Of a stretch of 64,000 nt of DNA, positions 5,428 through 52,022 are shown one piece after another; position 1 is the stretch's first letter, and each line of letters opens with the position of its first letter. The DNA comes from a virus (lineage: Duplodnaviria > Caudoviricetes), in the IMG/VR virus record IMGVR_UViG_3300020388_000009, one strand, 5' to 3'. A program made the translations under genes and the position numbers. A model generated the notes under the pieces. That model searched no databases and was not told where the DNA came from. It saw nothing but the letters and a program-made list of their open reading frames with translations.

Positions 5428-5490
5428 AATATTTCCTTTATTTTATATAAATATTGGAACAATATGATACAATGAGATTTTAGTTGTGGA

Positions 5491-23777: not shown

Positions 23778-24338
23778 TTATTTTTTATATAAACCTTTGA
23801 GAACTCCTTTAATAACTTCTCGTCGTTTGGTTTCTGTTAGCGGTTTATATTTTGTATATGTTGCAACTATTTTATTTATTCTATCTTTTTTAACACTTAA
23901 ATTATTAATATCAATATTTTCACGCACTAATAATTTTAATATATTTTTAACATGACTAACTTCTTGTTCTGTAATTTGTTGTTTAACGTTACTGACCTGA
24001 ACTTTATTTTCTTGTATTACCGGTTGCTTTTGAGATCGAACTTCTACAGTTACTTGTTTACTAGCCTGTATATCAAATTCAGATTTCCATGGCGTAAAAT
24101 ATGTATCCTCGGCAATTACTTCTAAACGAATATTACCTTTAGAGGATTCATCAATTAATCCTTTCAATTTACGTATAGGAATTTCACATTTACCTGATTC
24201 GGAAATTTTTCCATTAAACATTAAACTGTAATCTGATGTTTCTACTACTAACCTAGCAGTTGATTTTTTTAGACTCGCGCCTTCTATTTTGATATCACAT
24301 TCAAATAGTTCTGGTTTATCCGTGTATAATTTATACAT
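23778..24338 (-). CDS. Hypothetical structural-region protein
   Basis: 186 aa. GGAG upstream and 8-nt overlap with the upstream gene. Several [ILV]-x-E sites in the C-terminal half. Confidence 0.7.
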   Translation of the reverse strand: MYKLYTDKPELFECDIKIEGASLKKSTARLVVETSDYSLMFNGKISESGKCEIPIRKLKGLIDESSKGNIRLEVIAEDTYFTPWKSEFDIQASKQVTVEVRSQKQPVIQENKVQVSNVKQQITEQEVSHVKNILKLLVRENIDINNLSVKKDRINKIVATYTKYKPLTETKRREVIKGVLKGLYKK

Positions 24339-24654
24339 GTATATTCTCCACTGTTAAATCAATTCCTAATACTTCTTTTACTACTAATTCACAATCTTCG
24401 GCAGTTACTTTAATATCATCTCTAATGGTTTTTTGTCCAGAATATGTTTCAATTCCTTTAACTTTGCATATCAATTTTATAAATCGCTTCTTTTTTTCTG
24501 GATCTAATTGATTAACATTATATGCAATTTCATCACCAGTCGCGGCTCCCACTTCCAATATAAGGAATACATCATCCCATTTATATGGATTTTCACCCCA
24601 TGTACTTATACCGGTTATTGATCTTACATTATCCCATCGTAAATTAATTGCCAT
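24331..24654 (-). CDS. Hypothetical protein
   Basis: 107 aa. Late motif only 6 nt upstream of the ATG. Confidence 0.7.
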   Translation of the reverse strand: MAINLRWDNVRSITGISTWGENPYKWDDVFLILEVGAATGDEIAYNVNQLDPEKKKRFIKLICKVKGIETYSGQKTIRDDIKVTAEDCELVVKEVLGIDLTVENIHV

Positions 24655-24672
24655 TTTATATAAATATGCTCA

Positions 24673-25338
24673 TTAATGATAACCATTCAATAATTCTAAT
24701 AAATCATCAATTGCGCCATGTCTATGAGAATCTTCCAATACAGTTTTAAATACATACTTTGAATTAGTTAGTTTAGACATATCATGATAAGCAGAATAAT
24801 TTTTATCTTTAAGATCTATTTGATATGAATCTCCGCAAAAAATCATTTTAGAATCTTTGCCTAATCGACCAATTGCCATGGCGAGTTGAGATCTGGTTAA
24901 ATTTTGAAATTCATCTACAATAACTACCGCATTATCAAAAGTACGTCCACGAAAATGTGCTAATGAACATAATTCGATTGATTCACTTTTTTCCATGGAT
25001 TCTAATTTATCTGGTTTATTATATACCTTTCGCATATTTGAACGGATAGGAACGAGCCATGGCTCCATCTTTTCTTTTTCAGATCCTGGTAAAAATCCGT
25101 TATCTTCTGTAGCAATTGTAGGCCTAGTAATTACTATTTTATTATATTGGCGTTTAAAAAATTGATCCAATGCTACTTGTACTGCTAATAACGTTTTACC
25201 AGATCCTGCTTTACCGACAATAAAATTGAACGGATGTTCTAAAATTTGCATTTTTGCTGCTTTTTGTTCTGGTGATAATGATAATGAAAACCGAACTGCA
25301 CCTTTTGGTGGAGTTTTTTCTGTATTTGCTTTTGCCAT
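24673..25338 (-). CDS. phoH: PhoH-family ATPase
   Basis: GKAGSGKT, ITRP, GFLPGS.KEKMEPW, FRGRTFDNAVVIVDEFQN, GDSYQIDL and SHRH motifs. Confidence 0.95.
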   Translation of the reverse strand: MAKANTEKTPPKGAVRFSLSLSPEQKAAKMQILEHPFNFIVGKAGSGKTLLAVQVALDQFFKRQYNKIVITRPTIATEDNGFLPGSEKEKMEPWLVPIRSNMRKVYNKPDKLESMEKSESIELCSLAHFRGRTFDNAVVIVDEFQNLTRSQLAMAIGRLGKDSKMIFCGDSYQIDLKDKNYSAYHDMSKLTNSKYVFKTVLEDSHRHGAIDDLLELLNGYH

Positions 25339-25421: not shown

Positions 25422-26195
25422 CTAACAACCCATTACTTGTTCCGCCACCATTTGTCTCCAATTTGGAAATCCCATTTGACGAATTCTAATTGCTTTAATT
25501 AATGATCGGAAATTTAATTCAACGGCATCAAACTTTTTAAATGCAGATTTCAATGCACTTAAAGCTTCTTTTTTAATTTTCATGTCTTTAATTTCTGGTT
25601 CAATTACCGGAAGTAAATCAGTCATTCTTTTTAACATTTGATTTGGAGTTAATGTTATATCCAATACAAATGCACGACTACGAATTGCACTATCTACTTT
25701 TTGAATTGGTAAATTAGATATAAAAATTATCTTACCAGTAAAATCAAATGATCTAGGAAGAGCATCACCATCTCTATCTTTAAGAGGTTTAGCTGACATC
25801 CAACTAATAACTCGTTTATCGTAACTATCTAAAGCTCCTTTTAATAAGTTAACACCATCTGAATCTTTAAATACTGAATCGCAGTCATCAAATATAATTA
25901 ATTTATCGCTATTTTCAAATAATGTAATAAACATACCTGCTGCAGTACAACGACCTTTTACATGTACAAAATCAATACCTTCTTCAAATCCTACTTCATC
26001 TAATGTTCTTGTAATATTAAATGTCTTTCCTAATCCAGGCATGCCGGTAACAACTAACGATGGAGAAACTCCAGCCGCTACCATTTTTGTCAAGTTATTC
26101 ATATCATCAAACATTGCTGAAGGACGTTTCTTTTCTTGGAAAGTTTTAAAATTCATTTTCATGTTTTTGGTTTTTTGGTTTTTAGCTATACGCAT
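25422..26195 (-). CDS. Phage AAA+/P-loop ATPase of unknown function
   Basis: Walker A GMPGLGKT, Walker B LIIFDDCD, IIFISN sensor and AIRSR arginine finger. The true start may be 11-13 codons downstream. Confidence 0.8.
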   Translation of the reverse strand: MRIAKNQKTKNMKMNFKTFQEKKRPSAMFDDMNNLTKMVAAGVSPSLVVTGMPGLGKTFNITRTLDEVGFEEGIDFVHVKGRCTAAGMFITLFENSDKLIIFDDCDSVFKDSDGVNLLKGALDSYDKRVISWMSAKPLKDRDGDALPRSFDFTGKIIFISNLPIQKVDSAIRSRAFVLDITLTPNQMLKRMTDLLPVIEPEIKDMKIKKEALSALKSAFKKFDAVELNFRSLIKAIRIRQMGFPNWRQMVAEQVMGC

Positions 26196-26221: not shown

Positions 26222-26253
26222 TAAAGATAAGGAAAAGATCTCACGCTACCAAA
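26222..26253 (-). promoter_or_regulatory. Bacteroidota sigmaA-type promoter (TTTG-N20-TATCTTTA)
   Basis: Matches the -33 TTTG / -7 TAnnTTTG consensus with one mismatch and a 20-nt spacer, immediately downstream of the capsid terminator. Confidence 0.7.
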
Positions 26254-26335: not shown

Positions 26336-28072
26336 CTATATAGTATCTAAGCCATGAACTAATACTTTACCGTAGAATTCAGGACGAACTATTTTCTTAG
26401 CATAACGAGTCATAACACCTTTTCTTGGAGTAAAGTTGTCTGGATCGTATACCAATGGAGTCATAATTAATGGAATGTATGGAGAATATACAGCACCTGT
26501 TTCTAGGAACTGAGATCCACGATATCCCATTAAAATAGAATTTTCAGTCATATATGGATTCTTATAAACTTGGAATCTAGAATTAATAGATCCAACTTTT
26601 TGAACACCCATTGCAAACTGCATTTTATCACCATCTGTATCAGCAGCATATCCTGGAATAGATTCTAGGATAGTCGCAACAGTTGGAGAACATACAAGGA
26701 AGTTAGCTCCACCTCTTAAAGTTAATTGGTGAATTTTGTTCGAAACTTTTTGTATTTTAGTACCTAAAGTTTGGAACCATGTTCCTTGGTTATATGCTTG
26801 AGCTGCAGAATTTCCGGCATTAAATCCACCAACGGCTGCATTATACTCATAACCTACTTTCGCAGACCATCTTTCAACAGTTTGAGCATTTTCTTGTAAC
26901 ATGCCTAAAATTTCTAAATCAATTTCTTGCGAAACGTATTCAGATAACATGCTAGTCAATTCTGCTTCAGCATCAATTGAATGATATGCATTTAAATCTT
27001 GGGCAAATTCTGGAGTCCATACTGCCTTCAACTTACGTGTCTTTGCAACAATGGCTTCAGATCTCATTTCAAGATTAATTTCTGGAATATTTAAAGAAGT
27101 GGAGCCGTTCATGTCTTCGTTAGGAGCTTGATCTTCGTAGTCACCTCTAGTAATATCAGATGGTTGTAACGCAAATGATACTTTAAATGCAGATGTCGCT
27201 TTGATATCTGCATCTTTCTTAATTAAGAATTCAATATGCGAACCGTTAGCAGTTGTTCTAGTAAATTCTGGATAGAATGCATTTGATCCAGACAAGTTAA
27301 ATGAACGAACAGCTTCTTGATCATAACGAGCAGCTACAGATGCATCTGAATGTAATGATTTAGAAGGTACTGATAAAATAACATGATTATCACCATGTAC
27401 AGATGCAGAAAACTCAGAATTAAAGTTTGTAAAGATACCTAACTCTGTAGCAGTCATTGCATCACCTGCTGATGCAGCAGTAGATGTAAATAAACCAGTA
27501 GTTGCAGATATAGAACCAGTTCTTGCAGTAGTAATTCCAGATTCACCTAATGTAACAGAAGCACCTTCCACCATATTAACTGAATATCCAAAACGACCTG
27601 GGCCATAAAGACCTTCAGTTCCTGGTGTTCCTTTACGAGCATCAGTGATACCAAATACAGAATCAGATTGAGCATCTTTTCCTTGACCAGTCAAGAAATC
27701 ATTTCCACCTGCTTGGTCAATTTGATTAACCGCAGTACCATATTTAAAGTCTAAGTAAAATACTAGACCAGATGGTAAGTTCATTGGTTGTACAGAAACA
27801 AAGTCTTTAGCAGCAATTTCAGCAAAAATTCTACGAACTAATGGAAGAGCTACCCCTGACCATTCTTCTGAATTTGAGTTTCCACCTGTCGCAGATGCTT
27901 CTGTTACCAATTGCTTGGCTTGGTTCTCTAAAAGAACGGCCATGCCTTTTCTTTCAACCTCTGATGATAATCCTTCCAATAAACCAGTCCTTTCCCACTT
28001 ACGTTCAAGTGCGATAGCAGCTGCATTTTGATTGGCACGACCATCTTGAGGCAATAATGAATTTATATTCAT
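26336..28072 (-). CDS. gp23: Major capsid protein (T4 gp23-like)
   Basis: LPLVRR, VSVQPMNLPSGLVFYL, AKTRKLKAVWTPEFAQDL.AYHSIDAEAELTSMLS, YSPYIPL and F.PRKGVMTRYA motifs. Confidence 0.97.
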   Translation of the reverse strand: MNINSLLPQDGRANQNAAAIALERKWERTGLLEGLSSEVERKGMAVLLENQAKQLVTEASATGGNSNSEEWSGVALPLVRRIFAEIAAKDFVSVQPMNLPSGLVFYLDFKYGTAVNQIDQAGGNDFLTGQGKDAQSDSVFGITDARKGTPGTEGLYGPGRFGYSVNMVEGASVTLGESGITTARTGSISATTGLFTSTAASAGDAMTATELGIFTNFNSEFSASVHGDNHVILSVPSKSLHSDASVAARYDQEAVRSFNLSGSNAFYPEFTRTTANGSHIEFLIKKDADIKATSAFKVSFALQPSDITRGDYEDQAPNEDMNGSTSLNIPEINLEMRSEAIVAKTRKLKAVWTPEFAQDLNAYHSIDAEAELTSMLSEYVSQEIDLEILGMLQENAQTVERWSAKVGYEYNAAVGGFNAGNSAAQAYNQGTWFQTLGTKIQKVSNKIHQLTLRGGANFLVCSPTVATILESIPGYAADTDGDKMQFAMGVQKVGSINSRFQVYKNPYMTENSILMGYRGSQFLETGAVYSPYIPLIMTPLVYDPDNFTPRKGVMTRYAKKIVRPEFYGKVLVHGLDTI

Positions 28073-28085
28073 TTTCTTTTCCTTT

Positions 28086-28991
28086 TTACAGATTAGCTAA
28101 TTTTTTCCATCTAGCAGATAATGCAGTACCTTCAGAAATCACTTTCTTTGGAGCTGTTGACCGACTAGGTGTAGAAGCATAGCTTTCTTTGATTGATCTT
28201 TTTGTTTTACCATTCAAGTTAAACGATTCAGATAATGTAGCATAAACTAATTTTACTTCACGAATAGATGAAGCGCGATCAAAGTTTTCAATTACTTTCA
28301 TTTTCTGAGATTCATTCATTGAATGATTTTTAAACAATTTGTTTGAGAATAATAATTTTGCATTAAGAAGATTAACTTCATTAATTTTACCTTTCAAGAA
28401 TCGAATAACGTTGTAAGCTTCTTCTAAGTCTTTTTTAGATTCGCCTTCATCTTCTTTAGCTTCTTCCACAGGGGTTTCATCTGCTTCATCTTCTTCTCTT
28501 AAAGCATTAATAATTTCATCAATAGAAATATCTTCATCTACTTCATCGCCGCGGCCTTCTTCAGCCACAGGAGCATCATCTTCACCTTCTGCATTTTCTG
28601 CAACTGGTTCTTCAGAAGCTGGTTCTTCTTCTTCATGAATTTCAGATTCTAATTCTTTGATAATCGCTTCTAATTCTAGATCTTCATCTTCAGCTACCGG
28701 CTCATCTTCAGGTGCCATTTCTTCAGAATGAACATCCATTGGATCTTCATCTGCATCCATGATACCTCTGCCTTCAGCTGCTACTGGCTCTTCCACCGGT
28801 GGTTCTTCAGCTACTGGTTCAGCTTCTAATTCTGGTTCATCTAAACCTTCTTCTTCAGCTAATTTAGCAGATAACATTGATTGTAATCTAGGAGTAAAAG
28901 CTTCTTCTAATGCAATTTTAGCATTAGCAAGTGCAGTTTCTCTTACGGCTTTCGCGTCTGCAATTGCTTCTTTTAATAAATCATTTGCCAT
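28086..28991 (-). CDS. Prohead scaffold/core protein (gp22 equivalent)
   Basis: 301 aa, very acidic, immediately upstream of the capsid gene. Many [LIV]-x-E sites. Ends RWKKLANL. Confidence 0.8.
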   Translation of the reverse strand: MANDLLKEAIADAKAVRETALANAKIALEEAFTPRLQSMLSAKLAEEEGLDEPELEAEPVAEEPPVEEPVAAEGRGIMDADEDPMDVHSEEMAPEDEPVAEDEDLELEAIIKELESEIHEEEEPASEEPVAENAEGEDDAPVAEEGRGDEVDEDISIDEIINALREEDEADETPVEEAKEDEGESKKDLEEAYNVIRFLKGKINEVNLLNAKLLFSNKLFKNHSMNESQKMKVIENFDRASSIREVKLVYATLSESFNLNGKTKRSIKESYASTPSRSTAPKKVISEGTALSARWKKLANL

Positions 28992-29121
28992 GATTTTTCC
29001 TCTTATTTAATTTGGAAATAAGGCTATTAAGAGCCTCAATAGGAAGTACTAATGTACTTATTTAGATAGAATTCGAGTGACCGATTATTAAAATACGGTA
29101 TCGTTAACATTTATATATATG
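28992..29121 (-). promoter_or_regulatory. Structured 5' leader of scaffold-capsid operon
   Basis: Late-motif variant at ~29114-29120, then hairpins at 29080-29099, 29044-29059, 29021-29036 and 29002-29022. Confidence 0.55.
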
Positions 29122-29153
29122 CAGTAATTTACAAAAACATTCGTTTAAAACGT

Positions 29154-29180
29154 AAAAAAGTGCCAAAAGGCACAATTTTT
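29154..29180 (-). terminator. Intrinsic terminator after bS21
   Basis: Minus strand gtgcc-tttt-ggcac followed by tttttt. Confidence 0.8.
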
Positions 29181-29430
29181 ACTGATTCTGGTCATCTAAC
29201 CATTGATAATACTTGGCTCGATCAACCTCCTCTTTTCGTTTTTGACCTTTTGATTTAAATTCTTTACGGTCTTTTAATTCTTGAATCTTCCCAGATTCTT
29301 TTAATTCTCTTTTAAAAGCTTTTAATGCTGAGTTTATATCACCTTTTGGATATTGTTTTGTTGATAAAACTTTAACAGCTACACCTGCACCAGGTATAAT
29401 ACTTTTGAAATGTTTACTTTGTTTACTCAT
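29179..29430 (-). CDS. rpsU: Phage-encoded ribosomal protein bS21
   Basis: 83 aa, basic. V.V....DINSALKAFKR..KESG.IQELK.RKEF.S....RKEE..RA fits the bS21 pattern. Confidence 0.88.
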   Translation of the reverse strand: MSKQSKHFKSIIPGAGVAVKVLSTKQYPKGDINSALKAFKRELKESGKIQELKDRKEFKSKGQKRKEEVDRAKYYQWLDDQNQ

Positions 29431-29458
29431 GTAACTTATTTTATTTTAATATTAATTG

Positions 29459-29490
29459 ATAATATAACAAATATATTTCAAACGTCCTAA
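29459..29490 (-). promoter_or_regulatory. Host-type promoter of bS21 (TTAG-N20-TATATTAT)
   Basis: Same geometry (20-nt spacer) as the promoters at 26222, 36546 and 51991. Confidence 0.55.
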
Positions 29491-30406: not shown

Positions 30407-31012
30407 TTAAAACTCCGTTATAATATCAGTAATAATACGTTCTACATTTGCAAATTTATTTGCAGTAACAGATCCTTTAGATTCATTTACTGGAGATAAA
30501 AATGCTCCATGAGTGGATGGATTAGAAACAAAGTCAAATGCAATTAATTCAAAGTCTGGCTGTACCTCTAATGTATCTCCGCCTTCTCTCATTACTTCTT
30601 TAACAGATCCCATTCCTCGTGATGATATACCTAATCGTATACCTGATTTAAAAAGTTCTTTAAGAATATTTCCTGCAGGAGTTCCTAACACTTCAACTTT
30701 ACCTACCAAATCATCCCCTTGCCATCCCATTTCTAAAACGTTATGAGATACATTATTTAAATTAACTACCGATGAATCCGGATGATCCAATTCTCCTAAT
30801 GCACGTCGTTCTTTGATAAATGTAGCAGAATAATTATTTGCTTCACGCATTAAAGTTTCTTTTGGATAAATTCTTCCATTTTGATTTTTTGCTTCTGCTC
30901 TCTGAAGAACTCCTTTTACAATTAATTTACCATTATTTTGAGTTAATGATTCATTTATTGCTTGGGGTGATACTTCAAATACTGTATAATCTACTAAAAG
31001 TTGCTTATTCAT
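30407..31012 (-). CDS. gp21: Prohead core protease (T4 gp21-like)
   Basis: NQNGRIYP, ALGELDHP, VSH, GISSRGMGS and FDFVSNPSTHGA motifs. Confidence 0.96.
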   Translation of the reverse strand: MNKQLLVDYTVFEVSPQAINESLTQNNGKLIVKGVLQRAEAKNQNGRIYPKETLMREANNYSATFIKERRALGELDHPDSSVVNLNNVSHNVLEMGWQGDDLVGKVEVLGTPAGNILKELFKSGIRLGISSRGMGSVKEVMREGGDTLEVQPDFELIAFDFVSNPSTHGAFLSPVNESKGSVTANKFANVERIITDIITEF

Positions 31013-36545: not shown

Positions 36546-36577
36546 TTAATATAATAAATTATTTGCAATATTACAAA
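36546..36577 (-). promoter_or_regulatory. Host-type promoter of terminase (TTTG-N20-TATATTAA)
   Basis: Exact TTTG, 20-nt spacer. The -7 element ends 5 nt before the ATG, implying a nearly leaderless mRNA. Confidence 0.6.
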
Positions 36578-47839: not shown

Positions 47840-50800
47840 TTAGTCATATGCAATTTCAGAATATCCGTTAACTTTTTTGATTTCTATTAATTTATCTACG
47901 ATATCACGCATTGCATCAATGTGAGATATACACATTATAAATCCAAATTGTGATTTCAAATAATCAAACAACATATACATGCTATTTAAATTATCAGAAT
48001 CTAGAACTCCAAAACCTTCATCAATTGCTAAGAAATTTGGCCTAGGTAAATTTGACACATTAATTAATGAAGTGCGTATTGCTAAAGATGAAATAAATTT
48101 TTCCATTCCGGAAGTCAATTCTAATGGCCAATAATTATCATCATCATAAACAATATAAGCATTTATATTCTTACCATCGGTATCCATTACCATAGTAAAA
48201 TCAACTATCTGATTAAGTATATTGTTTATTTCGGATTCTATTTGTGGTAATGCTTTAGATATTAAATGGTACGGTACGCCGTCACGATTAACTGCTTTTT
48301 GATAATATTCATAAGCTTGATATTGTTGTTCTAATGTTTTTAATCTGTTAATACCTGATTCAGCATCTTCACGACTTTTTTCAGCCATTTTTAATTTACC
48401 AGATAAATTTAATAATTTAGAATCTAAACCACTTAATTCAGTATTTACGGTTGTTATTTCATCACGTATTTCTTGAATTTCAGAATTTTTCTTTTTATTA
48501 AATTCAATATTATCTTTTTGTCGCTTAGACTTTGTTAATTGTTTTTTATAATCAGAAATTTTAACAAACAATGTTTCAATATCCCATTCACATTTACTAT
48601 GTTCATGTTCCATTGTAGCTAATAATTGATTCCATTTATTGACATCAGATTTAAATGCATTTAACATATCTATCTTTTCACGTGGTTGTTCTTTTCGTAA
48701 TTCATCTATTTTATTTCCAAGATCATCTATATCAAATAATATTTGTTGTTCTTCGTCAATTAATTTTGGTAATAAATCTGCAACTTGTTTAGTTTCATGA
48801 AGCCATGGATTAGCCATGCAAAATTTACATTCTGGATCCCATTCATGTTTATCTAATTTGGAAACCATTTTTTGAGCATGCTGAATTTTAAGTTGTTTTA
48901 ATTTTAAATCATTCTTTAATTTTTCAACATCAGATATATATGTTTTTAATATATCAATGTCAGAATATAATTTATCTTCATCAACTGAATCTATTTTAGA
49001 TTGTGTATTATTTATCAAATCTTTTTTAGATACGATCATGCCAGCTTTTTGATCTCTATCTTGTATATACTCTTGTAACTGTATTTTAGCTTGTTCAATT
49101 TTATTCGAGATGATATCCGGATCTAATGTTTCATCAACTTTTTTTAATTCTTTTGTCATGACAAAAATGATATCATTTAAATTTGATTTCATTTCTTCAT
49201 GTTCAGTTTTATCTAATTTCATTTGTTCATATGAACCGGTAAATTGAGATATAATATCTTTTGCTGCAGATAGATCTGTTGAAAAATCTTTTCTTTTATA
49301 TTCACGAATTAAAGCCGCAGTTTCTCTAATATCTTCATGTCCAATTAAATATTGTTTTTCAAAAATATCTAAATCTAAAAATTGAGATAAAAGATCTTTA
49401 CGTTCTCTTTGTGTTTTATCAATAAACCCAGTATTATTATTTTGTAATGATAAAGCAGTTAAAACAAAATCTTCGTATGAACCTAAATATTGTCTTATAC
49501 TTTTATTTGTAGAATCTCGTTGTTCGCCATTTAAACTTTCATGATTACCAGATTCATCAATACGCCAAAAATCTACATTTAATTTAACATGGCCATTACT
49601 TTGTTTCTTTGCTTTACGTTCAATAAAATATGTATATTTTCCTAAATCAAATTCAAATTTACATTGAAAATTAGATTTTTTATTATTTAATACATGGGCT
49701 GCTTTTTTTGTTCGCGAACATCGGTCAAAACAACAGAATGCTAATGCATCTAATAATGTTGACTTACCAGAAGCATTTGGAGCAAATAATCCATATGTTC
49801 CATTCATGTTTGAAAAATCTATGGAATTATTTGTACCATAACTAAACATATTTGAAAACTCAAAACGTTTTGGCGTCCATGTTATATTTCTAGTCAATGT
49901 ACTTGTTGGTAATTTACTATGCACTTGTCGATTAATATATCTAACAGTATCTAATAATTCATCATCTAAAGCATATTCATCTGTTAAATAATCTGTAATT
50001 ACTTTATTTTGCCATTCAACATCACGTATATTACCAAAATTAATTTTATTTTTTGAATCAGTTGTATTCAATGCATTGACTTTTTGTAACGCAATATCCT
50101 GTACTTTGTATTGAGATTTAACATCTGCGATTATTCGTTTCAACGTTGCAGAATCGGTATCTTTCACTTTAAATCGCAATCTAGGACGTAAAGGTATTTT
50201 ATCGCTAGGATTTGTTATTTTACCAGCATCTACATGAAATGTATAATATCCATAATCATTTTCAATATCAATAAATTCACATTGTTTAGATTTTAAATCC
50301 CATACCATTATTCCATGGTCTAATGCTTCTCCATGATTTTGTTGTATTAATGAGCCGGCATATGCTATAGTTTTATCATCATCTAAAAATTGTGGTTTAT
50401 GAATATCACCTAATAATACTAAATCATGTCCTTTAAATATTTCAGTTGTAACATGAGTATTACTTAATACAAATCCGGCATCTGTTGATGCATTATGTAC
50501 TGAACCGTGATGTAATGCAATTTTATAATCTCCTTCAAAACTATCAGCTTTTATATAATCTGACGGCTTATCAAACACCGACATTACGTTAAAGTGTACT
50601 CCGGCCATACTATATACACCGTTGTCTTTAAGATAGTGTAAGTTTTGATGATTTAAGGCTTTAACAATAGGAGATAATGCATCTAAGCGATAGTTATTAT
50701 TTAGGTTACAATCATGGTTACCAGTAATTACTATAGTAGGTGCTAAATCTGCTAATTGTTTAAAGAAATCTGAAACTACAGATACAAGTTCAGGTGACAT

Positions 50801-50992
50801 ATCTGTTTTTGCATGTACAATATCACCGGCCACATATATTAATGAATCAAGCGTTTTTGTTTTTTTAATATACGAATACAAACGTTTAAATACTAATCTA
50901 TATTCTTTATGACGTTTAACATTTCTAACATGTACATCTGCAATGTGATAAATTTTATCAATCTTTTCAATTCCAATATCTATATTGTGCAT
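47840..50992 (-). CDS. Fused Mre11/SbcD nuclease-Rad50/SbcC ATPase (gp47+gp46 equivalent)
   Basis: HIADVH, VAGDIVH, GNHD, LGDIH and YAGSLIQQ motifs, then NASGKST, zinc hook CKFC, signature TSGME, AIDEGFGVLD and ISH. Confidence 0.92.
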   Translation of the reverse strand: MHNIDIGIEKIDKIYHIADVHVRNVKRHKEYRLVFKRLYSYIKKTKTLDSLIYVAGDIVHAKTDMSPELVSVVSDFFKQLADLAPTIVITGNHDCNLNNNYRLDALSPIVKALNHQNLHYLKDNGVYSMAGVHFNVMSVFDKPSDYIKADSFEGDYKIALHHGSVHNASTDAGFVLSNTHVTTEIFKGHDLVLLGDIHKPQFLDDDKTIAYAGSLIQQNHGEALDHGIMVWDLKSKQCEFIDIENDYGYYTFHVDAGKITNPSDKIPLRPRLRFKVKDTDSATLKRIIADVKSQYKVQDIALQKVNALNTTDSKNKINFGNIRDVEWQNKVITDYLTDEYALDDELLDTVRYINRQVHSKLPTSTLTRNITWTPKRFEFSNMFSYGTNNSIDFSNMNGTYGLFAPNASGKSTLLDALAFCCFDRCSRTKKAAHVLNNKKSNFQCKFEFDLGKYTYFIERKAKKQSNGHVKLNVDFWRIDESGNHESLNGEQRDSTNKSIRQYLGSYEDFVLTALSLQNNNTGFIDKTQRERKDLLSQFLDLDIFEKQYLIGHEDIRETAALIREYKRKDFSTDLSAAKDIISQFTGSYEQMKLDKTEHEEMKSNLNDIIFVMTKELKKVDETLDPDIISNKIEQAKIQLQEYIQDRDQKAGMIVSKKDLINNTQSKIDSVDEDKLYSDIDILKTYISDVEKLKNDLKLKQLKIQHAQKMVSKLDKHEWDPECKFCMANPWLHETKQVADLLPKLIDEEQQILFDIDDLGNKIDELRKEQPREKIDMLNAFKSDVNKWNQLLATMEHEHSKCEWDIETLFVKISDYKKQLTKSKRQKDNIEFNKKKNSEIQEIRDEITTVNTELSGLDSKLLNLSGKLKMAEKSREDAESGINRLKTLEQQYQAYEYYQKAVNRDGVPYHLISKALPQIESEINNILNQIVDFTMVMDTDGKNINAYIVYDDDNYWPLELTSGMEKFISSLAIRTSLINVSNLPRPNFLAIDEGFGVLDSDNLNSMYMLFDYLKSQFGFIMCISHIDAMRDIVDKLIEIKKVNGYSEIAYD

Positions 50993-51903
50993 AATATCTT
51001 TTGTTCCATTAATTTTTCTTGAGTTAACATTACAGTATGTTCAATTTCATATTTTATTCGGTTAAATCCTAATTCGCTAGGATCTGAATCAGGTAGGTCT
51101 ACAAAATATACTTCTAATCCATTTGACATGAAATAATCCGCGGCTTCTAATGCTTGTTTACGTGCATCCATATCTAAACAAATATATATTTCTTTAACAC
51201 CTTTTTCGACAATACGTTTTTTAAGAGTATTTGATATTGTTTTACCAAACAATGGAATTGCATTACGTTTAATTGCAATTGCATCAAATGCACCTTCTAC
51301 TAATATAATTGGCATATTCCAATTAATATGTAATTCAAATCCTACAATATCTTTTGATGCATTTGGATTCTTATGTTTATAATCAGTATCATAATATGCA
51401 CGTCCTACAAAATAGTTTAAACTACCATTTGCATCATAACTTGGAATAATTATTTTACCATTATATAATCCATTGGTACAATATCCTATTCTATATTTAA
51501 GTATATCATATATAGTAATACCTCTATTCTTTAAATAATATATAGCATTACGATACTCCGGAGATTTTGTATCAATTTTCCATAATGGTTTATATTCTTC
51601 GGGTAATTGTATAACAGGTGTATCTGTTGTTGTTTTTGTAGGACGGTATTCAACGTCATCGAGTAATTGAATTAACCGCGATATTTTTTCTCGTTGGACA
51701 TTTAACTTACGAAATAATACAGTTAATTTTCTTCCAGCGGCATTACATACCCAACAATGCCAATGTTGAGAAACAACATTAACTTCCATTTTCTTTTTAG
51801 TAGTAGGACAGAAAGGACAATGAAATGCAATATTATCATTAGAGTTTATTTTACCTTTACCTAATACGGATTCTAAAAGTGTAATTACAGAGAATTTGCT
51901 CAT
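50980..51903 (-). CDS. DNA primase (Zn finger + TOPRIM)
   Basis: CPFC...HCWVC, YL..RGI, IIIP, FVGR, LVEGAFDA and CLDMDA..DP motifs. Confidence 0.9.
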   Translation of the reverse strand: MSKFSVITLLESVLGKGKINSNDNIAFHCPFCPTTKKKMEVNVVSQHWHCWVCNAAGRKLTVLFRKLNVQREKISRLIQLLDDVEYRPTKTTTDTPVIQLPEEYKPLWKIDTKSPEYRNAIYYLKNRGITIYDILKYRIGYCTNGLYNGKIIIPSYDANGSLNYFVGRAYYDTDYKHKNPNASKDIVGFELHINWNMPIILVEGAFDAIAIKRNAIPLFGKTISNTLKKRIVEKGVKEIYICLDMDARKQALEAADYFMSNGLEVYFVDLPDSDPSELGFNRIKYEIEHTVMLTQEKLMEQKILCTI

Positions 51904-51990: not shown

Positions 51991-52022
51991 TGAATATATC
52001 AAAAATATTTCGTAAGATCAAC
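51991..52022 (-). promoter_or_regulatory. Host-type promoter of primase-Mre11/Rad50 unit (GTTG-N20-TATATTCA)
   Basis: Same 20-nt geometry as the other three host-type promoters. Confidence 0.55.

Follow-up and report, generated by a model that had tools for sequence, protein, structure and literature searches.

Phage-encoded bS21 and Shine-Dalgarno-bearing late genes in a family of T4-like phages: a candidate ribosome-specificity switch

The 64,000-nucleotide stretch of viral DNA analysed here (IMG/VR virus record IMGVR_UViG_3300020388_000009, Caudoviricetes), referred to at its full length as the window, carries a gene for the ribosomal protein bS21 in the midst of its head genes. bS21 is the most common phage-encoded ribosomal protein, and the window gene is another copy of it (Mizuno et al. 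2019, PMC6375957; Al-Shayeb et al. 2020, PMC7162821). The general work on phage-encoded bS21 does not define any feature by which the phage protein would prefer certain mRNAs (PMC6375957, PMC7162821). Its bS21 message starts without a Shine-Dalgarno (SD) sequence, whereas most of the other genes in the window have one. A prediction made earlier from the letters of this DNA had proposed a ribosome switch, in which SD-less phage mRNAs are read by normal host ribosomes first, until phage bS21 replaces the host copy, frees the anti-SD and redirects translation to SD-bearing late mRNAs. We have analysed the bS21 unit, the translation starts of the phage and of its relatives, and the bS21 protein itself with this proposal in mind.

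The bS21 unit and two kinds of translation start

The window belongs to a T4-like myophage with 33% G+C, whose minus strand carries all 46 open reading frames (ORFs), bS21 included. The bS21 gene lies within the terminase/portal/protease/capsid block, with the prohead protease gene (30407-31012) on one side and the scaffold (28086-28991) and capsid (26336-28072) genes on the other. It is made up as follows:

29460-29489, minus strand: class-2 (non-late) promoter-like motif, TAG-N19-TTATATTA, conserved in 12 close IMG/VR relatives
29431-29459, minus strand: A-rich bS21 leader without SD, anti-SD pairing energy +0.1 kcal/mol
29179-29430, minus strand: phage bS21 gene, 83 residues, Pfam PF01165 Ribosomal_S21 (34 bits, cut-off 27)
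29154-29178, minus strand: intrinsic terminator closing the bS21 unit, with its stem at 29173-29160 and its T run at 29159-29154, from a terminator scan and folding

The promoter-like motif sits in a 56-nt spacer upstream of bS21. It is kept in the 12 IMG/VR relatives while the leader differs in both length and sequence, and more distant relatives conserve it in the form TTG-N19-TTATATTA; in the window, the position of the TTG is taken by the TAG stop codon of the upstream gene. At the other end, the terminator hairpin GTGCC-TTTT-GGCAC followed by T6 has a folding energy of -13.8 kcal/mol (z -5.8), and in two relatives (L008 and L012) the stem shows the compensatory change GTGCC/GGCAC to GTACC/GGTAC. 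Within the head module, bS21 thus forms a unit of its own that runs from promoter to terminator, in agreement with the original prediction of a separate unit between the protease and scaffold genes.

The same is not the case for the label "host-type" that had been given to its promoter. In consensus scans of the window, 47 sigma-70-like sites (69.8 expected) and 107 copies of TAnnTTTG (93.7 expected) were found, which is chance level in both cases, so that a host type cannot be read from the consensus; both scans were dropped as a mark of the bS21 promoter. The sequence TATATTTG at 29468-29475 does match the Bacteroidetes sigma-A form, but it is not kept in the wider relatives. The motif itself stands as conserved, promoter-like and non-late. 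In its form TTG-N19-TTATATTA it resembles the early promoters of Flavobacterium phage immuto, which consist of TTG-N20-TATATTTAGG and then an A-rich, SD-free leader of about 30 nt, the same layout as in class 2, and it fits the sigma-70 layout equally well.

SD signals were scored as the energy of pairing between positions -20 to -3 and the 16S tail CACCUCCUUUCU, with a threshold of -5 kcal/mol or lower, and as cores of the types AGGA, GGAG, AGGT, AAGG or GAGG within -17 to -4. Such cores are found before 32 of the 46 window genes, compared to 12.5% of 1522 internal ATGs (binomial 6e-19), and 25 of the 46 genes (54%) reach the energy threshold, compared to 16% of internal ATGs and 22% of shuffled leaders. 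The frequency of G is maximal, at up to 49%, at positions -12 to -8, which is the canonical SD position. The method was controlled on 504 genes from 30 Flavobacterium loci, where it detects a depletion (5.4% compared to a background of 21%), and on the Flavobacterium rpsU leader, whose score of -19.7 kcal/mol matches the published extended SD. The start of bS21 is indeed SD-less, and the leader is likewise free of an SD in 25 of 29 non-redundant relatives. The split in SD usage that had been counted by hand is recovered as well: none of the five genes singled out earlier has a core, as opposed to 32 of the remaining 41 (Fisher 0.0015; the earlier count was 34 of 42).

The split follows two classes of promoter-like motifs, for which the following sites are representative:

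36547-36576, minus strand: class-2 motif TTG-N19-TTATATTA, 6 nt before the ATG of the terminase gene (SD energy +2.1)
51992-52021, minus strand: class-2 motif copy upstream of the primase gene (50980-51903), 17 of 19 bases in common with the bS21 site
26223-26252, minus strand: weaker class-2-like motif, TTG-N19-TTATCTTT, before the SD-less gene of a 257-residue AAA-like ATPase (25422-26195)
24655-24667, minus strand: late-type promoter motif ATATTTATATAAA, one of six exact copies
28073-28086, minus strand: capsid SD, AAAAGGAAAAGAAA, -6.2 kcal/mol (capsid gene identified by Pfam Gp23)
28992-29004, minus strand: scaffold SD, AAGAGGAAAAATC, -6.3 kcal/mol, invariant in 10 relatives

The copy of the class-2 motif before primase lies 88 nt upstream of the gene, whose SD energy is +2.9. 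The other five exact copies of ATATTTATATAAA, at 5442, 7872, 25363, 38425 and 40895, are on the minus strand too and stand directly upstream of genes, and ATATTTAT occurs in 11 upstream regions where 0.55 would be expected. TTATATTA is contained within the late motif ATATTTATATTAAA; the two motifs are otherwise distinct.

SDs are found in none of the four class-2 genes of the window and in one of seven on G001, a 103-kb contig from the same clade as the window phage, but in six of nine and 17 of 26 late-promoter genes, respectively. On G001 the genes behind TTG-N19-TTATATTA include UvdE, ClpP, primase, terminase, bS21 and DNA polymerase A, and six of the seven are SD-free; a block of small genes, among them those for a methyltransferase and a PNKP-type phosphatase, lacks SDs as well. 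The virion genes of this contig, operon-internal ones included, have AGGAG-type sites. Equal use of SDs by non-structural genes elsewhere, which would speak against a switch, is thus not what G001 shows. For most class-2 genes, just 4-9 nt separate the end of the motif from the ATG, and their mRNAs, including that of terminase, are therefore probably leaderless; bS21 is the exception, with an A-rich leader of 16-29 nt. The genes that had been called SD-less do lack an SD, but several of them are probably leaderless rather than simply SD-less. In summary, there are two start types: late-promoter, virion and operon genes have short SDs (AAAGGA/AGGAG), and class-2 genes are leaderless or have an A-rich SD-less leader, which is the kind of start used by Bacteroidia ribosomes. 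An early timing of the promoter class of bS21 is suggested by the genes that accompany it.

Temporal promoter classes are well known from T4 (late TATAAATA-type, early and middle), and the window likewise has a late motif, ATATTTATATAAA, at virion genes and a second class at replication-type genes. In T4, however, all promoter classes use SDs, whereas in the window phage the kind of translation start can be told from the promoter class as well.

Pfam matches for the window comprise the Gp23 major capsid protein, an S77 prohead protease, a gp20-type portal, the large terminase (Terminase_6N), primase (Toprim/DnaG), a fused Mre11-Rad50, endonuclease I and PhoH. The fusion combines Mre11 (Metallophos) and Rad50 (SMC_N/AAA_23) in a single ORF of 1050 residues (47840-50992, minus strand), which at its start overlaps the end of the primase gene and lacks an SD.

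A few further observations concern individual starts and leaders. The late motif ATATTTATATAAA abuts the ATG of the ORF at 24331-24654 and likewise stands directly before three genes of contig G001, which means either that these late mRNAs have no leader or that translation truly begins further downstream. Between the bS21 terminator and the scaffold gene, a 187-nt spacer (28992-29150, minus strand) is highly conserved in 10 relatives. It contains a promoter-like CATATATATAAATGT as well as two hairpins in which compensatory changes are seen (C:G to U:A and G:C to A:U, in three sequences each). In the same spacer, a UUCC...GGAA pairing would mask the scaffold SD (AAGAGGAA). In one IMG/VR clade (L198-L202) the bS21 frame has no ATG; its apparent TTG or GTG start follows a strong SD (AGGAGG) after 4-5 nt, the start region lies at the end of the upstream gene, and the proteins have no Tyr54 equivalent and a basic C-terminus. 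Finally, the ClpP gene of G001 (locus L208, 3398-4036, minus strand) has the same class-2 motif as bS21 and no SD. It has been speculated that such phages might encode a protease removing host bS21 (McNutt et al. 2023, PMC9976891).

bS21 and SD signals among related phages

A search with the protease yielded 80 related viral loci out of at least 595. The presence of bS21 in them was scored by a Pfam search of the records and of stop-to-stop frames. All 24 protease-to-capsid loci that contain bS21 are SD-rich (0.39-0.80 of their genes). The two protease-to-capsid loci without bS21 are SD-poor (L063, 0.11; L109, 0.14), as is immuto (0.06), whose complete genome has no PF01165 match anywhere. Microcystis phage Mel-JY01 and immuto are the nearest isolates, with a capsid identity of 57% each, and Mel-JY01 has an rpsU gene at the equivalent place. 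Mel-JY01 (L001, PP395634.1) has 34% G+C, is SD-rich and encodes a bS21 without the Bacteroidia tyrosine; the family to which it belongs contains Flavobacterium phages.

One of the bS21-free relatives is the 50-kb contig G013, the source of L063, which is close to the window phage and syntenic with it (terminase 773 bits, capsid 688 bits). Its late and class-2 motifs are the same, but a 267-residue ORF occupies the bS21 slot, the leaders are G-free and the SD frequency is 7%. The original prediction would have been contradicted by the same SD split in relatives without bS21. Instead, SDs are nearly absent from them (immuto 6%, G013 7%, L109 14%).

SD-poor, bS21-free lineages stand at no fewer than three places on the protease tree, which is built on about 200 residues and has weak deep nodes, and this state is therefore not the result of a single event. 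Moreover, when the 46 window proteins were sought in three SD-rich and two SD-poor comparators, bS21 alone was present in each of the former and in neither of the latter. The same pattern is seen for one fibre protein, but from weak matches only. Thus, bS21 and SDs go together across the phage family, and the syntenic bS21-free relatives are SD-free, like their Flavobacterium hosts.

The bS21 protein and its probable host

The best solved relatives of the phage bS21 are the bS21 chains 9i5v_9 and 7jil_z. Compared to the forms of 62-64 residues, an alignment shows a basic N-terminal extension of 16 residues and an insertion of roughly five residues, so that both peculiarities noted earlier are real relative to these forms. 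A basic N-terminal extension has also been noted in bS21 of huge phages, and bS21 of a Pelagibacter phage enters E. coli ribosomes (PMC6375957, PMC7162821). An AlphaFold2 model (mean predicted local distance difference test score 83.7) has helices at 32-55 and 61-82; Foldseek with this small helical model gave no match in the PDB.

A tyrosine near the C-terminus had been suspected to match the host residue that contacts the anti-SD, and it does so: in an ungapped alignment to 7jil_z, Tyr74 of the phage protein falls on Tyr54 of Flavobacterium johnsoniae bS21. The C-terminus, YYQWLDDQNQ, is acidic, as in Bacteroidia-type bS21. Tyr54 together with a weakly basic or acidic C-terminal part is the signature of the Bacteroidia bS21 that locks the anti-SD (Jha et al. 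2021, PMC7797042). The canonical Bacteroidia protein of about 64 residues with a conserved KPS turn is not matched, however: the phage bS21 has 83 residues, and SKG replaces the KPS inter-helix turn. A 64-residue bS21 relative, P0095, had no match among the cellular genome contigs searched.

A second indication of the host comes from G005, a contig of the well-supported 12-row clade to which the window belongs. It encodes a protein of 1050 residues (locus L115, 1495-3195, minus strand) that ends in a type IX secretion system (T9SS) type A sorting domain (PF18962, 44.7 bits; TIGR04183, 41.2 bits with a cut-off of 23). The domain was found in one of 20 related records. This phage protein is probably exported through the type IX secretion system of the host; it bears a weak resemblance to T9SS-dependent M36 peptidases. 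The T9SS is confined to Bacteroidota and near relatives. The sorting domain in a clade-mate, the Bacteroidia signature of bS21 (Tyr54, non-basic C-terminus) and the relationship to Flavobacterium phage immuto indirectly make an SD-blind Bacteroidia bacterium the likely host; a normal SD-using one would have spoken against the switch.

Flavobacterium-type rpsU genes, 82-86% identical to that of F. johnsoniae, were also met on two contigs of metagenome-assembled genomes, L185 (genome G026, titled Porticoccaceae) and L145 (titled Rhizobium); the phylum sample obtained for G026 is identical to that for Flavobacterium, and the contigs are probably mis-binned or the records mis-labelled.

Homologues of the window bS21 protein, 67-95% identical, are common in marine metagenomes, including Tara. 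That phage bS21 occurs among the head genes of Bacteroidetes myoviruses was known already (Chen et al. 2022, ISME Commun, PMC9723584). The phages of that study likewise have bS21 in the terminase/portal/prohead protease/capsid block, and an aromatic residue at the position of Tyr54, a presumed Bacteroidetes host and the idea that host bS21 is replaced are common to them and the window phage. They differ in several respects. The phages of Chen et al. are from freshwater and their bS21 is on the opposite strand to the structural genes, whereas the relatives of the window phage are marine and the window bS21 is on the same strand, in its own SD-less promoter-to-terminator unit. That paper contains no SD analysis, and neither the co-variation with SDs nor the SD-less bS21 message appears in it (PMC9723584). 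Particular to the window phage is, thus, a tyrosine-retaining bS21 in a stand-alone SD-less unit. In the library of papers that we searched, none connects phage bS21 with SDs on phage genes.

Possible roles of the phage bS21

Bacteroidia ribosomes hold the anti-SD in a pocket formed by bS21, bS18 and bS6, and loss of bS21 or damage to this platform pocket frees it. Ribosomes without bS21 are good on SD mRNA and poor on SD-less mRNA, and wild-type ribosomes respond only to very strong SDs, with a pairing free energy below -13 (McNutt et al. 2023, PMC9976891; Arpin et al. 2026, PMC13000457). The short SDs of the phage (-5 to -9 kcal/mol) would therefore be useless in Bacteroidia unless the 16S tail is free late in infection.

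The reading we favour, tentatively and with somewhat more doubt than belief, is that phage bS21 alters the bS21 state of the host 30S in such a way that the anti-SD pairs with the SDs of late genes. The messages of bS21 and of the replication-type genes would first be translated by ordinary host ribosomes. Phage bS21, with its basic N-terminal extension, its insertion and its altered inter-helix turn, would then enter the host 30S, replacing host bS21 or competing with it. The 3' tail of the 16S rRNA would be free for pairing with late mRNAs through their short SDs, and these mRNAs could out-compete the SD-less host messages. The SD-less bS21 message may finally make the conversion self-limiting, as converted ribosomes would read it poorly. 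In its fullest form, which we put forward with still more reserve, the proposal is that phage-type bS21 is a ribosome-specificity switch that makes SD-blind Bacteroidia ribosomes read short SDs, with negative feedback through its SD-less message, and that the pair of bS21 and SDs has been gained or lost jointly in the family.

The logic is shared with the autoregulation of F. johnsoniae rpsU, where bS21 on the 30S decides whether the anti-SD is locked or pairs (PMC9976891, PMC13000457). The rpsU message, however, has an extended SD of 13 bp (-19.7 kcal/mol) and is read by bS21-free ribosomes, whereas the phage bS21 mRNA has the reversed polarity, with no SD. Unlike the single strong SD of rpsU, the phage SDs are short and stand on many late genes. 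The papers on the host circuit merely speculate about phages (PMC9976891, PMC13000457). A different design is seen in a 735-kb phage (L218, LR756501.1), whose host-like bS21 gene (24928-25116, plus strand) is preceded, like host rpsU, by a strong SD (AAAGGAGGATAA), which suggests entry into the host autoregulatory loop, opposite to the design of the window gene.

The switch proposal has come through the three computational comparisons described above, which concern the host, the non-structural genes and the bS21-free relatives. The step in which the anti-SD is freed is one that we infer only, with the tyrosine retained, and a number of observations weigh against the favoured reading. This tyrosine, which helps to lock the anti-SD and is kept as KY[YFI]Q throughout the window clade, weakens the simplest mechanism of unmasking; if phage bS21 is a switch, the N-terminal extension, the insertion and the inter-helix turn must matter. 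Chen et al. took the aromatic residue at the Tyr54 position as a sign of host-like function, and in their study bS21 transcripts appeared alongside late genes (PMC9723584). The bS21 genes of other clades in the family are themselves SD-bearing, sometimes with a TTG or GTG start. Moreover, two huge phages with a host-like bS21 of 64-65 residues are not SD-rich (20% compared to a background of 23%, and 4% compared to 21%), and the presence of bS21 alone was rejected as a predictor of SD use on these grounds. The counts of co-variation are raw and carry no phylogenetic correction, and further co-varying genes may lie outside the sampled regions. Finally, a Bacteroidia host is likely on indirect grounds only, and Mel-JY01 is recorded on Microcystis, a cyanobacterium, so that the phage family may cross phyla.

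The retained tyrosine leads to a first alternative, in which phage bS21 is host-like and still locks the anti-SD. After host shut-off, the supply of host bS21 would fall short, bS21-free ribosomes with a free anti-SD would build up and read the SD-led late mRNAs, and phage bS21 would top up the pool so that the SD-less or leaderless phage mRNAs, for terminase and replication, remain read. Conservation of the Tyr54 equivalent and of the acidic C-terminus in the clade agrees with this, as do the host-like function deduced by Chen et al. (PMC9723584) and the activity of bS21-free ribosomes, which work on SD mRNA and poorly on SD-less mRNA (PMC9976891, PMC13000457). The co-variation between bS21 and SDs fits as well. 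Such a buffer gives no account, however, of the conserved N-terminal extension, the insertion or the exchange of SKG for the KPS turn, and it requires an additional, putative way of stripping host bS21. Moreover, in other clades of the family bS21 lacks the tyrosine and has a basic C-terminus, and these clades are equally SD-rich. We consider this alternative doubtful, although it deserves serious attention.

It is unlikely, in our view, that the SD-richness simply mirrors an SD-using host, either outside Bacteroidia or from an SD-competent lineage, with bS21 as a general hijacking or supply gene and only the SD-poor relatives infecting Bacteroidia. The SD-rich Mel-JY01 with its Microcystis record is in line with such a host, phages of many phyla carry bS21 (PMC6375957, PMC9723584), the host of the window clade is deduced rather than directly linked, and a sigma-70-like TTG-N20-TATATT describes the class-2 motif about as well as the Bacteroidetes consensus does. 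An SD-using host is difficult to reconcile, however, with the T9SS sorting domain in a clade-mate and the Bacteroidia-type bS21, and it leaves unexplained both the avoidance of SDs by bS21 and the replication-type genes and the association with bS21 (24 of 24 loci compared to none of three). The SD-poor G013 is, moreover, so close and syntenic that a jump between phyla over a short distance would be needed, at three or more places on the tree.

That the AGGA-type motifs are part of the late promoter or transcript start, or a by-product of purine-rich leaders, instead of ribosome-binding sites is highly improbable and already largely refuted: although many cores have the late motif ATATTTATATAAA within 15-30 nt, they also occur before promoterless operon-internal genes, the G peak is fixed relative to the ATG, shuffled leaders stay far below the observed frequency (22% compared to 54%), and the late motif is present in immuto and G013, where the cores are missing.

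Returning to the favoured reading, its link to SDs gives the ribosomal protein most often encoded by phages a testable job. The vague notion that phage bS21 favours phage mRNAs becomes defined, as it now concerns a specific mRNA feature and a specific ribosomal element. Bacteroidia ribosomes are the best-studied ones that hide their anti-SD tail, with bS21 as part of the lock, and the phage family is a natural experiment, in which close syntenic phages have bS21 and SDs on virion genes or neither of the two. If the proposal is true, it would provide a tool for orthogonal translation in Bacteroidia, and it would give a clear example of the start signal read by the host ribosome being changed by a virus.

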